From Eledone cirrhosa (Eukaryota), in NCBI GenBank assembly GCA_964016885.1, contig OZ024743.1, forward strand, positions 49,848,001 to 49,912,000: a stretch of 64,000 nucleotides of DNA. The letters are read 5' to 3'. The translations under genes were made by a program, and so were the position numbers. The notes under the pieces were generated by a model, which ran no database searches, had not been told where the DNA came from, and worked only from the letters and a program-made list of their open reading frames with translations. The first letter of the stretch is position 1, and each line of letters begins with the position of its first letter. Positions 5,802 to 62,641 of this stretch are shown here, one piece after another.

Positions 5802-5828
5802 AATAATAATAATAATAATAATAATAAT
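5802..5828. repeat. (AAT)n microsatellite
   Basis: Direct reading. Separates the A1 5' end from the R4/Dong fragment. Confidence 0.97.
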
Positions 5829-6962
5829 CTGTGTCTATTATTAGGTACAGTGCGAGAATTCTAAGATGGAATGTTGCTGAACAAAAAGAAATGGATAGGA
5901 AGACTAGGAAGCTATTGACTATCTACAATATGTTCCACAAGAGGAGTGATGTCGATAGACTCTACTTAAGGAGATCTGAGGGTGGAAGAGGTCTTATCAG
6001 CATAGAGGACTGTGTTCAGATGGAGAAAAACAACCTACACAAATACGTGACTGATAGTAAGGAGCCAATGCTCAGAACTGTACTGAAGGAGGGGACAATA
6101 GGCCAGGGGATGTCCAAGGAGGAAATAACATCAAGGAGAAAGAGCAGCCTTCAGGAAAAATCCCTTCATAGTACCTTCTTTGAGAAAACTGAATTTAGAG
6201 ATTCACAGACATGGAACTGGTTGAAAAGAGGAGACCTTAAAAAGGCTACAGAAGGAATGTTAATGGCTGCGCAGGAGCAGGCCCTCAAAATGAAGTGGTT
6301 GAAACACCACATTTACAAGGAGGAGGCCAGCCCACTGTGCAGGATCTGTGGAGAGAGAGAGGAGACTGTGGCTCACATTGTATCCGAGTGTAAACACCTA
6401 GCCCAGACTCACTATAAGGGCTGGAGACATGATGTGATGGGCAGGGTGATCCACTGGCACCTATGCAAAGTAAACAATTTACCACATTCTGAGAAGTGGT
6501 ATGAGCATAAGCCAGAGGCGGTGATAGAAAACGATCAGGTGAAGGTGCTGTGGGATTTTAGGATACAGACGGACAAGAAACTGGAACACAATAGACCTGA
6601 CCTGGTGGTTTTGGACAAAGAAAAAAGATCGTGCCTGATTGTGGATGTGGCCTGCCCATTCGACACGAGAGTGCAAGAGAAGGAGAGGGAGAAAATTAAC
6701 CGATACCAGGACTTAAAGTGGGAGGTAAAAAGGATTTGGAAGTGCCATGAAGTCAAAGTGATCCCGATTGTCATAGGCGCACTAGGGACTATCTCAAAAA
6801 GTTTCCAGGGATGGTTAAAGAAAATTGGCCCCTTCACGCTTTTTGGAACGCTTCAAAAGGCATGCTTGCTGGGAACAGCAAGAACCCTCCGATACGTCCT
6901 GAATATCTGAGGCTCAACAAACTTTCCAGTTAACCAACATCAATGACTGAGACTCAAAGAAC
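5829..6962 (+). mobile_element. 5'-truncated R4/Dong-like non-LTR retrotransposon (RLE endonuclease)
   Basis: ORF 5831-6910: LYLRRSEGGRGL thumb, CRICGEREETVAHIVSEC zinc finger, RHD, RPDLVVLDK, IVDVACP, GALG, LQKACLLGTA. (AAT)n on both sides matches the known TAA-repeat targeting of Dong. Confidence 0.88.
5831..6910 (+). CDS. Uninterrupted C-terminal 359 aa of R4/Dong ORF (thumb, CCHC, PD-(D/E)xK restriction-like endonuclease)
   Basis: ORF track; motifs as above. No true start codon because of 5' truncation. Confidence 0.8.
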   Translation: MSIIRYSARILRWNVAEQKEMDRKTRKLLTIYNMFHKRSDVDRLYLRRSEGGRGLISIEDCVQMEKNNLHKYVTDSKEPMLRTVLKEGTIGQGMSKEEITSRRKSSLQEKSLHSTFFEKTEFRDSQTWNWLKRGDLKKATEGMLMAAQEQALKMKWLKHHIYKEEASPLCRICGEREETVAHIVSECKHLAQTHYKGWRHDVMGRVIHWHLCKVNNLPHSEKWYEHKPEAVIENDQVKVLWDFRIQTDKKLEHNRPDLVVLDKEKRSCLIVDVACPFDTRVQEKEREKINRYQDLKWEVKRIWKCHEVKVIPIVIGALGTISKSFQGWLKKIGPFTLFGTLQKACLLGTARTLRYVLNI

Positions 6963-15424: not shown

Positions 15425-18400
15425 GCTGGCTCATAGCTGGCTTCATCAATCCAGCGAATGACAACGTGATTTCCATTGGGAAAACCACAGGCAATGCGTT
15501 CAGTGGAACAGGTATAGAACTTGTAGTGCAAATGAAGCCTGAACGCATTGCCCAAATACCCGACAGAATCCTATTAGGGGGCCACGGGTATATAAACATT
15601 AGCGTGGAGGGGAGAAGGCCGTCCTGTCATATCTGTGCAGGCAGAGGGCACCTGAAGGCGGCTTGTCCCCAACTCAACAAGAAGAAAACCCTGCTACCAA
15701 CACCAGCTCCACCACCACCACAACAGATAAACAAACAACAAAACTCAGTCCCACCCAACCCGTCCCTCAGTAAAACTACACCACCACCACAACACAAACA
15801 GTCACAACACCTTACCCAAAAACAAAACACAGTCCCACCCAACCCCTCACTCAATAAAACAACACAACCACCGCAGCCACAACACACAACACAGTCTAAC
15901 ATAGTGACATCCATCTCCCCCACAGAGAAAACCAACACGGAAATAATACCAGCAAACATACCTCTTCCCTCCAACACTGAAGATAACCCAACGAATTAGG
16001 AGGAAGAAACGGAGTCCTTCAGACAGATTAAAAGGAAAAAAAGAAAACATGTGCAAAACACACAAAGCCAAACAACCCCTACCCAAATGTCAACACAATC
16101 CAACAAAACACAAAACACCCCTCCAGCAACAAACAAAACCAAACCTGCCCCTCCCCTCTTCGAAACACTCACACCATCCGAAAAAAAGACATTACACTAT
16201 ACTTACATCAACAGAAACAATAATAAATTAAATGAACTCATAAACAATAACCCTTCGGTACAAACCGAAGGGGTAAACTTTGTTTCTTCAGAAAACTACT
16301 CACATTTAAAATTAATAAAGATCCCAATGAACCTCTACCAAAAACTAAAAAAGGATTTTAAGGAGGACGTAGGACCACCCTCTGTCAAACCCATAAACCG
16401 CGTCCTACTAAAAAGCTTTCCCCCTCCCCTTCCCCTCCCCAACACAACTCCAAACACTGACGACCCCACACCACCACAAGACACCCCTTCACCCAACACC
16501 CCCTACCCCATGGAAGTCGTGCGACCCGAACCCCGGGAAGCAGAAAGGTAGGTCTCTACACTCTCCTTTGGCTTTGCCGCCCACATGGATGTGTTAAGAG
16601 TAGGATGTTTGAATGCACGTGGCCTGGGCTCAACTTGGAAGCAAGCAAAGCTTCTAAATGACCTCAGGTCACGTGGTATAAATGTAATGGTTATCTGTGA
16701 GACTCGGATCAGCGTCGTGCGGCAGCTGGCCCCTACCTTCGATGACTTTGAGGTGCATGCATCTCTCTGTCAACCTGGAGGTGGGGGTGGGGTTATCGTA
16801 CTGCTGGAAAAACACCTGGGTCTCACCGTACAGGTTGTTCACTCGGACCCGGAGGGTCGTTTGTTGGTGCTAGACGTTGGCAGTAGTGAAGGTGCGGCCT
16901 TGAGACTGGTCGCCATCTACTCCCCTTTCGGAGCTGAACGGCCCTACTTCTTCCAGCGTTTGGAGACTTTTCTGGGAACGTCGTGTTCCCTGCTTCTAGC
17001 GGGGGATTGGAATGACATCCTAGATGCACGTTGGGACTATGCAGGAGCATGTCCTAATAGAGGGGGGTGTAACAGCCTCAAGGGGTTACTCGACCGTTTT
17101 AACTTGGTCGATAGATATCGACTAGATTTTCCAACTGTGTCAACCTGGACTTGGACGAACCATAGTGGTCAATATAGATCGTATTTAGATATATTCTTAG
17201 TTAGAAGTAAGGATAGGGACATATTAAGCTGTCCAGAAATGCTCACGGTTGGCTATACGGATCACAAATTAGTGACCTGCGTAGTCAATCTCGAGAAAAC
17301 ACATAAACAGGGTCCCGGCTACTGGAAACTTAATTTGTCTTTAGCGGCAAAAGAGACTTACAGAAACCGGATTAGCAGATTAGTTAAGGAGAGGTTGACG
17401 GGTGCAATCGTCAACAACCGATGGTGGGCATCTCTCAAAAGAGAGATTAGAACAGAATCAATAAGTTATAGCAAGATGTTAGCTGCCGATAGGAATAGAA
17501 ACGAGAAAGAATTAACAGGTAAATCAGAAGAGGCAATCAAGAGCGAAGATGTGGCCAGAGTGCTGGCATCGAGGACGGCCTTGAGCCAGTTTTTCGATGC
17601 AAAGCACGAAGGCTGCGTCATTCGAAGTAAAATACGTGCTCTAGGTAATGAGGGGGCCAAAGCCGTTGGCTGGGCCCGCGTGACAGAAGCTAAGAGTGGA
17701 AATCGATCCACCATCCGGTCTTTGCAAGACGAGGATGGACGGGTGATCCGGGAGCCTAAGCAGATGTGCGAGGCCTTTCAAAGGCACTTTGCCCGATTAT
17801 TCGGGGGAGGCGAGGGTCCGGGCGGGGACGTGGATTTCGGTCCATACCTCGACGGCCTGCCGCGTCTCTCGAGCGAAGAGGCAGAGTCCTGCGAGGGACC
17901 AATCTCAGCTGATGAGATCGGGGATGCGCTGAGCCAATGCAGCAGACGCAAATCTCCAGGTCTCGATTGTATACCTTACGAACTTTATTTAGCAATGCCG
18001 GTCTTCGTCTCCGAACTCCTCGAAGCGGTCTACTGCAATTGGCAGCAGAACGGGAGAATTCCTTGTTCTGTAGCCAAGGGCGTAGTCTCGCTGGTGAGGA
18101 AGGACGAGAACAAGGAGGATAGTATAAATAATTTTCGGCCCATAACCCTGCTAAACACAGAGTTAAAGATTTTGGCCAAGGTGTTAGCAAAGAGGTTGGC
18201 GCTTGTCGTGGGTGGCCTGGTGGGAGATGCGCAGACTTGTGCTATCCCATCCAGGTCCATTCACGATAACCTCCACCTCATGCGATACATCATAGAGAGG
18301 GTTGGGAACAAACCCGGCTTCGGTGGGGCCCTGATCAACTTGGATCAGTCTAAGGCGTTCGATAGGGTCGACCATGGTTACCTGGATGCGGTGCTAGCGG

Positions 18401-50980: not shown

Positions 50981-51246
50981 AACGGAAAAAATGAAACGAA
51001 ATTTTATTTCCCACTCTTAGTACGGCTGTTACTTAAATATAAGTATGTACACGTACATACATATATGTATACAGACGTACAGTAGTATGTATATATATAT
51101 ATACATACATGCACACATATATATATGTACGTATGGATTCACCAAACATTTATTATAATGCTCGGTGTGTTTGTAAACAAACATCTCGTATTAAGCCGTA
51201 GTGTCCGGCAACCATCGTTGCTCGTTTGTTCAACACTGACAAAGGA

Positions 51247-51289
51247 ACGCTGTACTAGTTTCAAGCTTATTAGCTATCGTCAGTAACGT
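51247..51289 (-). ncRNA. Minimal type-I hammerhead ribozyme
   Basis: acguua-CUGACGA-u-AGCU(aaua)AGCU-u-GAA-ACUAGU-A-cagcgu. Confidence 0.8.
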
Positions 51290-51775
51290 ATACCTTCCGG
51301 CCAGATTGTTGAACTTATATACTTACCTTATGCATATTAACGGCTGAGTAGACCAATTTGCATATCGAGTGGGTTAATCGGCCGGGTGCACCGAAAACGA
51401 TAAACGGAAAAAATGAAATTATATTTAATTTCCCACTCTTAGTACGGCTGTTACTTAAATATAAGTATGTACACGTACATATATATATGTATACAGACGT
51501 ACAGTAGTATATATATATATACATAAATGTACACATATATATATGTACGTATGGATTCACCGAACATTTATTATAATGCTCGGTGTGTTTGTAAACAAAC
51601 ATCCCGTATTAAGCCGTGGAAATGAAGAGTGGGAAATGAAATTTCGTTTCATTTTTTCCGTTTATCGTTTTCGGTGCACCCGGCCGATTAACTCACTCGA
51701 TATGCAAATTGGGCTACTCAGCCGTTAATATGCATAAGGTAAGTATATACGTTCAACAATCTGGCCGGAAGGTAT

Positions 51776-51818
51776 ACGTCGCTGACGATAGCTAATAAGT
51801 TTGAAACTAGTACAGCGT
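51776..51818 (+). ncRNA. Minimal type-I hammerhead ribozyme (inverted copy)
   Basis: acgucg-CUGACGA-uagcuaauaaguuu-GAA-ACUAGU-A-cagcgu. Confidence 0.78.
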
Positions 51819-52023
51819 TCCTTTGTCAGTGTTGAACAAACGAGCAACGTTGGTTGCTGGACACTACGGCTTAATATGGGATGTTTGTTTACAAACACAC
51901 CGAGCATTATAATAAATGTTTGGTGAATCCATACGTACATATATATATATGTGTGCATGTATGTATATATATATACATACTACTGTACGCCTGTATACAT
52001 ATATGTATGTACGTATACATACT

Positions 52024-52113
<90 letters not shown>

Positions 52114-57487: not shown

Positions 57488-57561
<74 letters not shown>

Positions 57562-57721
57562 AATTAAAATAAGAATTAAAATACTAGAGTGTGTTGGAGT
57601 TAAACACCCTCTTCATATTATAGAAATGACAGTATAAGATATAGCTCAGTGTAATTAAACAGAGCCGAAGAATTATAAAAAATAAACCAAAGAAGCCTTC
57701 AATACATCAACAGTCTTTATT

Positions 57722-57763
57722 AGCCAACAATGTTTCGTCCTATTAAGGACTCATCAGGGCAAG
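57722..57763 (-). ncRNA. Minimal type-I hammerhead ribozyme
   Basis: gcc-CUGAUGA-GUCCU(uaau)AGGAC-GAAAC-auu-GUU-ggc: canonical core with all three stems. Confidence 0.85.
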
Positions 57764-59396
57764 TAAAACTACACGAAGCACTATCGGCCAATACAAGCCA
57801 AAAACTCAGAAGAATATGGAGTATACATCTATTAAAGCTTAGGAAAGATATCAAGGAAAAGTTGGCTAAGATTAAGAGTGAGCAGTTACAAACATAGATA
57901 TAGACCAAATAGCAAGGAAGTGATTAACATGTTGAATCCACATTGTAAATATTGTATAATGCAAAAACTTGAAACACAAATGGTAATATAATGCGAGAAT
58001 TACAGTACGATATAGAATAGAATATAATATAATAGATGGTGATAATAAAAAGCTTAATATATGTATATATATATATATCTATACATATAGACATTAGTAC
58101 AAACACAAACTAACACTTATTAAGTATCTAAATATATATATATATATATTGTTTACAGTATAATATATAATATAATAAAGATAAAAATAAGAATAAAGAT
58201 AAAAATAAAAATAAAATATAATATATAATTCCCTGTCAGTGTGCATAAACAATATAAAACATTATAATAACATTATAATAACAATATTATAATATATTGG
58301 CATCAAAAGATATACAAAATTACATCATACATATAATTCAAGGTTAACAAATAGTATAAAGTTTTACACAGGGTAAGAAAAAAATCATATAGAACTAAAT
58401 TGTGTTGAAAAAATTGTGTTGAAAAAATATCTATACCATTGTAACAAATACACGGAGGTCAAGTCATTTTACATTGGCATAAATATTACCAAAATATCAC
58501 AAAATATTACAAAATATAACATAACAGTACCTCAAATAACAGACATATATTAAAATCTATAATACGATTACATAAAAATGATATGATATAACAACGTTAA
58601 CATCAAATAGCAAACAGAGTGTAAGGAAATGCTTCATATATATATTTACGTGGTTGACATACACAGACATATTAATGAAATTACATGATCAGACAGACAG
58701 CGTGTGGTAGTAAAAAAATAAATAAAATAAACCGAAGATCGAAAAACAAAAACAAGTATATTTACTTAGGTGTCACAAGCGGTTAAGTAAAAGAAAAAAG
58801 ATAGAAATGTAAACCGGAGAGTTGACTAGAAAACCTTTTTAAATTAATTAATATTAAAAGTATTTAAAATATATATTTAGTCACTTCAAAATTGGCTAGT
58901 GTTTAAGTCATCAAAATCGTATAAGTTTAAGATATCTCATTAAAATTATCAAGAATAGAGTAAAATATGCTCCGTTCAGTCGAATAACGCTATCAAATAA
59001 AAGGACTCTAAATAGAACTATGGTAGACCAATGGGAACAGAAAGAAGAGAGGTTATGGAGGATAGGAAGGAGCATAAAAGTAAAATCAATATATTATATA
59101 ATATCATAAAAAGGAGCATAAAGGTGAAATTTATATATAGTATAATAGAAGGGGCGAATATTAAGTGTATAGAGGAGGAGGTTCATTAGTTGAATGAGAC
59201 TCCAAACAAAGTATTTAATAAGATATAAACTCATAAGGTGTTAGTGAAGACACTATAATAATGCTTAAGAAGATAGATAGGATATGGTAGCCAAAAGACT
59301 ATGGAAACTAAAATCGGAAAGCTGTAAAAAACTAATAATAATAATGATGATGGTAATCAAAAGGAACCTAAACAAAAAAGAAAGGAAATATAGCAG

Positions 59397-60399
<1,003 letters not shown>

Positions 60400-62103: not shown

Positions 62104-62641
62104 TAAGTATGTTTTGAAACAGTGAGCAGGTTTGAAATTAGAAAATAGAATAGCTTTCACCGTATTTTTTGACTAAAGGAATTTTAGCCTGATAATGGGT
62201 TTTAGAACCCTCAGATAAATGGAAAAAGATGAGTATTGACGTACATGGGAGTCGAACCCACATCTTTGGTTATCGCGACCACTGTGCTACCATTACACCA
62301 GTGAGCTCTTGCTACTTACTGCACCTGTGCAACGACCACATATGTGTTCTTTGTTGCTTACCTGAAATCCCATTACATTTCTTGTGTACATATAGTTTGC
62401 ATAGGATGAATTCCTGCACACTGAACAAGGCCATTTCCCTGAGTGAATTGGAACCCTGTTTTCCTTTCTACATAATGGGACTTTAGTCTTTGTCAAGTTG
62501 AGTTGGTGTAATAGTAGCACAGTGGTCGCGATAACCAAAGATGTGGGTTTGACTCCCATGTACGTCAATACTCATCTTTTTCCATTTATCTGAGGGTTCT
62601 AAACCCCATTATCAGGCTAAAATTCCTTTAGTCAAAAAATA

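Follow-up and report, generated by a model that had tools for sequence, protein, structure and literature searches.

The locus analysed here, at positions 50981 to 52028 of a window of 64,000 nucleotides from Eledone cirrhosa, raises the question of what kind of element would leave a hammerhead motif on each strand, and how such an element came to lie between two (TA)n microsatellites. The available data are most compatible with an abundant hammerhead family of 422-bp units, of which this locus would be a decayed member, probably copied into (TA)n by the enzymes of a Penelope-like element (PLE). This family is likely an animal non-LTR retrozyme, a known kind of element (PMC7229834, PMC7761336). 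We hold this reading to be correct with a probability of roughly three in four.

The locus consists of a 1.5-unit tandem, which runs from 51617 to 50981 on the minus strand, and an inverted one-unit copy, which is joined to it head to head and runs from 51625 to about 52027 (Table 1). Specifically, the tandem has a period of 422, with 209/222 identity (94%) between 50981-51199 and 51403-51617, and the inverted arm (51625-52031) is identical to the tandem arm at 388 of 409 positions (95%). The 422-bp repeat in tandem-plus-inverted arrangement that an earlier, sequence-only reading of this DNA had described is thus borne out. A divergence of 5% between the arms and of 6% within the tandem excludes an assembly fold-back, and the arms are permuted whole-unit copies, not terminal inverted repeats. 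The same reading was right to call the unit non-coding: when it is read as a ring, the longest stop-free frame is 53 amino acids in sense and 66 in antisense. No ORF was found at the locus, and no LTR-type ends were seen in its sequence. GC content over 50001-52000 is 0.34. The 3' ends of both arms reach (TA)n via short TTAT-type overlaps, and the left (minus-strand) 3' end extends, tail-like, about 57 nt into (TA)n past the stop of the right arm. The filler at the inversion junction repeats GGAAATGA, which is present a few bases inside the right arm. No target-site duplication is discernible at the insertion flanks, and a blastn search with the locus returned no further unit copies within the 64-kb window.

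Table 1 Positions of the unit insertion, its motifs and the neighbouring element within the window
Feature	Position	Strand	Remark
Inferred target to the left, a (CA)n(TA)n microsatellite	50922..50980		
Full 422-bp unit period, 3' part of left arm	50981..51402	-	sequence, self-comparison
Partial second tandem unit, 5' part of left arm, without hammerhead	51403..51617	-	
Inversion junction, 7-nt filler	51618..51624		
Inverted arm, slightly under one unit, 3' end in (TA)n	51625..52027	+	
Right flank, (TA)n microsatellite, inferred target	52028..52111		
Type I hammerhead core, left arm	51253..51283	-	predicted cut after GUA, between 51253 and 51252
Type I hammerhead core, right arm	51782..51812	+	predicted cut after 51812
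Hammerhead with extended helix I	51228..51314	-	fold z -3.1; helix I predicted at about 23 pairs, bulges included
Hammerhead with extended helix I, right arm	51751..51837	+	fold z -2.1
Donor-like motif AG/GTAAGT	51737..51744	+	38 nt before core; mirror at 51321-51328 (-)
Octamer-like motif ATGCAAAT	51702..51709	+	in predicted hairpin of one fold
5'-truncated Hydra-clade PLE, both ends in (TA)n	57560..60291	-	motifs; separate from unit insertion

Each arm carries one hammerhead core of the form CTGACGA..GAAACTAGTA and reads CUGACGA, helix II, GAAA, CUAG and UA. The core pattern has four matches in the window, as compared with 0.20 expected from 100 shuffles; two of them are the arms of the unit, one belongs to a neighbouring PLE and one, at 15977, is without helix II. 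The CUGACGA/GAA-ACUAGU-A hammerhead noticed earlier thereby holds for both arms. Its helices measure 6 bp (I), 4 bp (II) and 1-2 bp with a palindromic loop (III). Helix II consists of AGCU/AGCU and has a U-U closing in place of G10.1-C11.1, and helix III is a single A-U pair below the palindromic CUAG, which the monomer is predicted to form at a forcing cost of about 5 kcal/mol. Two RNAs that pair via ACUAGU would form a dimer of a predicted -52.6 kcal/mol, versus 2 x -23.3 for open monomers. On these folding models, the ribozyme of the unit is predicted to be of a weak, dimer-dependent sort. The ring has a fold z of -7.0 in sense versus -2.6 in antisense, and of -3.8 once the AT hairpin is left out. 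Rfam detects no hammerhead in the unit at the gathering score or at E<=5; the miRNA matches that it lists at E<=5 were rejected as below-threshold matches to AT repeats.

To place this copy within its family, one unit period was compared with four of 23 listed public runs (X1, X4, X5 and X21), where X5 is a run under another species label, X21 is a RAD library and therefore biased, and X4 is not taken as RNA; small-share runs among the 23 are left out of the analysis. The unit matches 10,109 contigs in X1, 125 in X4 and 3 in X5, along with 76,850 of the 12,467,656 RAD reads in X21 (0.6%); these counts stand for abundance, not copy number, and summed contig depth is excluded as a measure of the latter. 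The head-to-tail joint that leads from 51402 to 50981 is present in all four runs, on 11 contigs in X1, one in X4, one in X5 and 1,159 reads with about 133 starts in X21. Moreover, at least 1,892 of the 2,757 X21 reads that overrun an end do so in closing joints, among the joints listed. The sequence-only reading would be refuted by a unit that is always tied to a PLE ORF as its pLTR, and the closure of the unit on itself in four of four runs speaks against such a tie. Its proposal of a non-autonomous hammerhead retroelement, in turn, stands at the level of the family, given this closure, the abundance and a helix I that is kept.

The joint from 51402 to 50981 would be interior to the unit if the natural start lies near 51019-51026. 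Reads cover 51011-51070, where the locus has its own ends, without a dip; an alternative junction, 51038-51019, lies inside the reference and also shows no dip in coverage, and record 19 of X5 spans both candidate junctions. In X21, a fraction of 0.78 of the matching reads continues into unlike sequence, and the largest loose ends among those listed either belong to a unit-like second subfamily (26 of 30 by eye at 51043) or are starts at the AATT enzyme site. Also in X21, reads end at 51003, 51355 and 51358, and some loose ends lie at 50999-51000; these positions coincide with AATT sites, and the ends were rejected as element ends because they are probably library cuts or chimeras. Two complete hammerhead units in a row occur on no contig or read, because the records are short. 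A rare coding parent of the unit is possible, given that short contigs break at branch points. In metagenome scans, a 26-nt unit pattern has 0 loci, and the 12 loci found with a 19-nt pattern were rejected as chance, with none of the 12 showing a downstream GAAAC or wider homology.

The reads also offer a view of how the ribozyme varies. Variants within the core 51253-51283 fall on N7 (51279) and loop 2 (51269) only, among the 40 listed of 73; by our own estimate from these 40 of 73, at a density of about 39 variants in 360, the lack of variants at 14 positions of the core falls short of significance. In helix I, the two letters of the third pair, 51286:51250, shift in step in X4 (0.87/0.86) and X21 (0.43/0.46 and 0.93/0.91) and change together on one X5 contig, but mismatch in frequency in X1 (0.28 vs 0.56). 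This pair alternates between U-G, G-U and A-U in the family, and the listed variants 51242 and 51307 break outer pairs of the extended helix I. The 6-bp helix I acguug/cagcgu that had been proposed for this locus is recovered in the family, where its closing letter T51284C (+) accounts for 99.9%, 100% and 97% of the depth in X1, X4 and X21. The pattern of substitutions suggests that helix I is kept by compensatory pair change. A second unit subfamily is recognizable over 51225-51325, with swapped helix I pairs, indels in the outer part of that helix and GA where the donor has GT, and is also present under the other species label of X5.

Two further motifs named in the sequence-only reading are present, but a role is supported for neither. 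The splice donor AG/GTAAGT has its GT changed to GA in 33%, 64% and 41% of the depth in X1, X4 and X21, and with five both-strand occurrences in the window, two of them from the unit locus, it is a weak signal. A 91-nt GT-AG stretch, 51739-51829, would span the hammerhead and remove it if spliced; of the 66 joints, the 15 that are listed do not include the corresponding skip, and the runs concerned have no RNA record. The octamer is a similarly weak signal (four both-strand occurrences in the window, two from the unit locus), and no test points to a function.

How the unit reached its present position is suggested by the anatomy of the insertion. According to the available part of PMC8557442, insertions of EN+ PLEs are marked by a partial tandem, an adjacent inverted 5' copy, a one-sided tail and a microsatellite target, almost all Hydra PLE families target (TA)n, and Naiad PLEs also prefer it. 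All of these hallmarks are found at the unit locus, with (TA)n as the target. Specifically, the locus is like the EN+ Hydra-clade PLEs of that paper in its partial tandem, its inverted 5'-truncated copy, its one-sided tail, its (TA)n target without visible target-site duplication and its canonical hammerhead, and differs in the length of the tail (about 57 nt vs 30-40 nt) and in having no ORF. Non-autonomous head-to-tail PLE derivatives are described there for Chlamys, and the unit resembles these. The insertion thus looks like that of a coding PLE, which the unit locus itself is not.

This geometry points, in our reading, to target-primed reverse transcription that began at two ends and used a template of more than one unit. 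Since both arms cross the cleavage site, this template would have been a circle or an uncleaved multimer. The differences between the three copies fit a circular and a linear multimer template alike: at 51144, unit 1 and the right arm agree, and at 51050, the two left units do. The model that we favour would begin at source loci with at least two complete units, which would be transcribed by read-through. With a helix III of only A-U and the palindromic CUAG, two hammerheads are predicted to pair via ACUAGU and, once paired, to cut slowly after GUA. The long helix I could then hold the ends of the monomer for ligation into a circle, by analogy with coral, mussel and axolotl retrozymes. Subsequently, the GIY-YIG endonuclease of a PLE would nick both (TA)n strands, with each nicked 3' end priming at a UUAU-like site in the RNA. 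One cDNA of 1.5 units and another of just under one unit would be joined head to head, and the product, which has damaged helices and a single sense hammerhead on each strand, would presumably be a dead end for unit-length RNA. A bolder version, which we put forward only tentatively and consider somewhat doubtful, is that the family is a circular-RNA retrozyme of very high copy number and that its circles serve directly as templates for the reverse transcriptase and endonuclease of a Hydra-clade PLE. In that version, two-ended (TA)n priming on one RNA would give rise to more-than-unit, circularly permuted, head-to-head insertions.

A PLE of this clade lies about 5.5 kb from the unit locus. It comprises a GIY-YIG ORF fragment that is open to 59397 (a weak GIY-YIG match) and a 1.6-kb 3' region, and it has a canonical hammerhead at 57726-57757 (-), for which Rfam HH9 gives 25.9 bits, below the gathering score. 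Its assignment to the Hydra clade is by motifs and not by a tree, with CxCX5C and CxxC/CxH in the PLE itself and RW-R and DKT in the homolog P0002; on the same motifs, an assignment to Neptune was rejected. The masked local score between the unit and the 3' region of this PLE is 22, within the range of shuffles (mean 20.3, maximum 27), and local alignment to this one PLE of the window thus finds no DNA homology. The neighbour therefore shows that such machinery was active in the genome rather than the identity of a helper, and its lineage is a candidate for that helper.

Compared with the metazoan non-LTR retrozymes described in the available part of PMC7229834, the unit is alike in being non-coding and within 150-450 bp, in its type I hammerhead and low GC, and in its head-to-tail array and highly self-paired predicted ring. 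A weak helix III with a palindromic tetraloop is also seen in axolotl HHR_Amex1 and a U-U at the base of helix II in HHR_Amex2; these two have one weakening feature each, whereas the unit joins both in one ribozyme. A 1.5-unit tandem with an inverted unit in (TA)n is not described in that part of the paper, and unlike the retrozymes reported there, the unit locus has a single sense hammerhead per strand. A PLE origin of non-LTR retrozymes has been argued by Li, Clavereau and Pollet 2026 (10.64898/2026.07.22.740005). In the accessible portion of that work, retrozymes cover a range of lengths that includes the unit, active arrays give monomer and partial offspring, and PLEs coexist with retrozymes, all as found here; eight of nine predicted retrozyme dimers showed no cleavage. 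Their link to PLEs is drawn from co-occurrence and pLTR homology, while that of the unit comes from insertion anatomy and target, with no pLTR homolog of the unit in the one PLE of the window. The PLE min-HHRs covered in the available part of PMC4209133 resemble the unit in a palindromic helix III suited to dimers and in opposite-strand pairs 100-700 bp apart. However, they have a helix I of 4-5 bp and a helix II of 7-8 bp, as opposed to 6 and 4 bp and no G10.1-C11.1 in the unit, whose helix sizes fit the 'canonical' metazoan type I hammerhead of that paper instead of the min-HHR. Judged by its sequence, the unit has the testable features of a metazoan non-LTR retrozyme, and the locus is a decayed copy, not an active element. 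A literature search, in which Craig et al. 2021 (PMC8557442) was the only match, found no description of the unit family.

The same observations could be accommodated, though with considerably lower probability, if the unit were an internally deleted PLE, with its 5' end joined to its hammerhead-bearing 3' end, that moves without circles, by way of a linear read-through RNA that stays uncleaved. In that case, the hammerhead would be near-vestigial, and the tandems would come from PLE template jumps. This account departs from our preferred explanation in the RNA intermediate only, and it draws on an insertion geometry that is entirely PLE-like, on a ribozyme that looks weak in helix II and in the helix III of the monomer, and on the ends listed, which show no excess at the cleavage site. 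A preferred 5' end is suggested by the inversion joints, as four of the five other head-to-head joints in X21 start at 51023-51026 and the right arm starts at the equivalent of 51018, but this cluster consists of four RAD joints with one or two starts each, all near the enzyme site. What tells against such a deleted PLE is a helix I apparently kept by compensatory change, together with helix sizes that are canonical rather than those of min-HHRs.

We consider it improbable, more so than the deleted PLE, that the locus is debris from the 5'-truncated tandem or inverted end of a coding PLE and that the unit has no mobility of its own. Opposite-strand hammerhead pairs 100-700 bp apart in Schistosoma are ascribed to truncated PLEs in the available part of PMC4209133, and an ORF junction may be present among loose ends other than those listed. 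However, what precedes the hammerhead on its 5' side, in either arm and in the family as seen in four of four runs, is the 3' end of the unit itself. A coding PLE would at this point run into its 3' UTR and ORF, as the neighbour does over 1.6 kb. Finally, it is very improbable that we are dealing with a satellite or MITE-like DNA repeat that resembles a hammerhead by chance, or with a fold-back in the assembly: the locus is a long inverted repeat in which Rfam finds no hammerhead, but its arms and tandem copies diverge by 5% and 6%, its arms are permuted and not terminal inverted repeats, its fold is strand-specific, and its variation falls at positions that a hammerhead tolerates.

Under the retrozyme reading, the state of this particular copy can be described from its private changes. 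One of them, at 51284 in the left arm, breaks the first pair of helix I, and another in the right arm breaks the second pair. The letter at 51299 is common to both arms and absent from 98-99.9% of the family depth; that the arms have it in common points to one event from one source, although conversion between the arms could also account for it. The locus has one sense hammerhead per strand, which the sequence-only reading had missed. As no single-strand transcript contains two sense hammerheads, the locus by itself cannot yield an RNA of unit length, and we expect that read-through transcripts would fold onto themselves as a duplex of about 400 bp. Li et al. define an active element by complete hammerheads in two successive units, an arrangement that is absent here. 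The circle of about 420 nt that had been envisaged for this locus is accordingly not borne out, with a single sense core per strand and both copies of helix I damaged.

The link between retrozymes and PLEs has so far consisted of co-occurrence and pLTR similarity. Here, the unit bears the PLE insertion signature itself, and its (TA)n target is also that of the Hydra-clade PLE found elsewhere in the window. The locus thereby adds an insertion anatomy and a very large family on which the circle model can be examined. Given the number of copies, a census of junctions could tell a circular from a linear template and identify the helper. If the bolder version, with circles as direct templates, is true, the notion that PLEs mobilise retrozymes through circles becomes testable on thousands of junctions, and a doubly weakened hammerhead would be expected to cut only as a dimer.

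The remainder of the window holds several other repeats. Nested inverted repeats at 46576-48218 (116-bp arms at 91%; a self-inverted part at 46678-46933) surround a C/A-rich interior and adjoin (TA)n at their right end, and are possibly a PLE-type or MITE insertion. A 54-bp minisatellite at 37707-41430, repeated 69 times with 97% matches, has an open frame of 1,436 codons on the minus strand, and a 57-bp array of 13 copies lies at 35130-35867. A dense cluster of LINE copies occupies 1-34814; the copies are related to one another, carry frames for APE, RT and zinc fingers on the two strands, and are taken to be L1/Tx1-like by their motifs. An RTE-like 3' fragment lies at 5828-6910. A SINE piece at 50009-50119 is presumably cephalopod-like. 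Lastly, a tRNA-like sequence at 62237-62307 (-), which at 31.9 bits is just above the Rfam gathering score, may be the head of a SINE.
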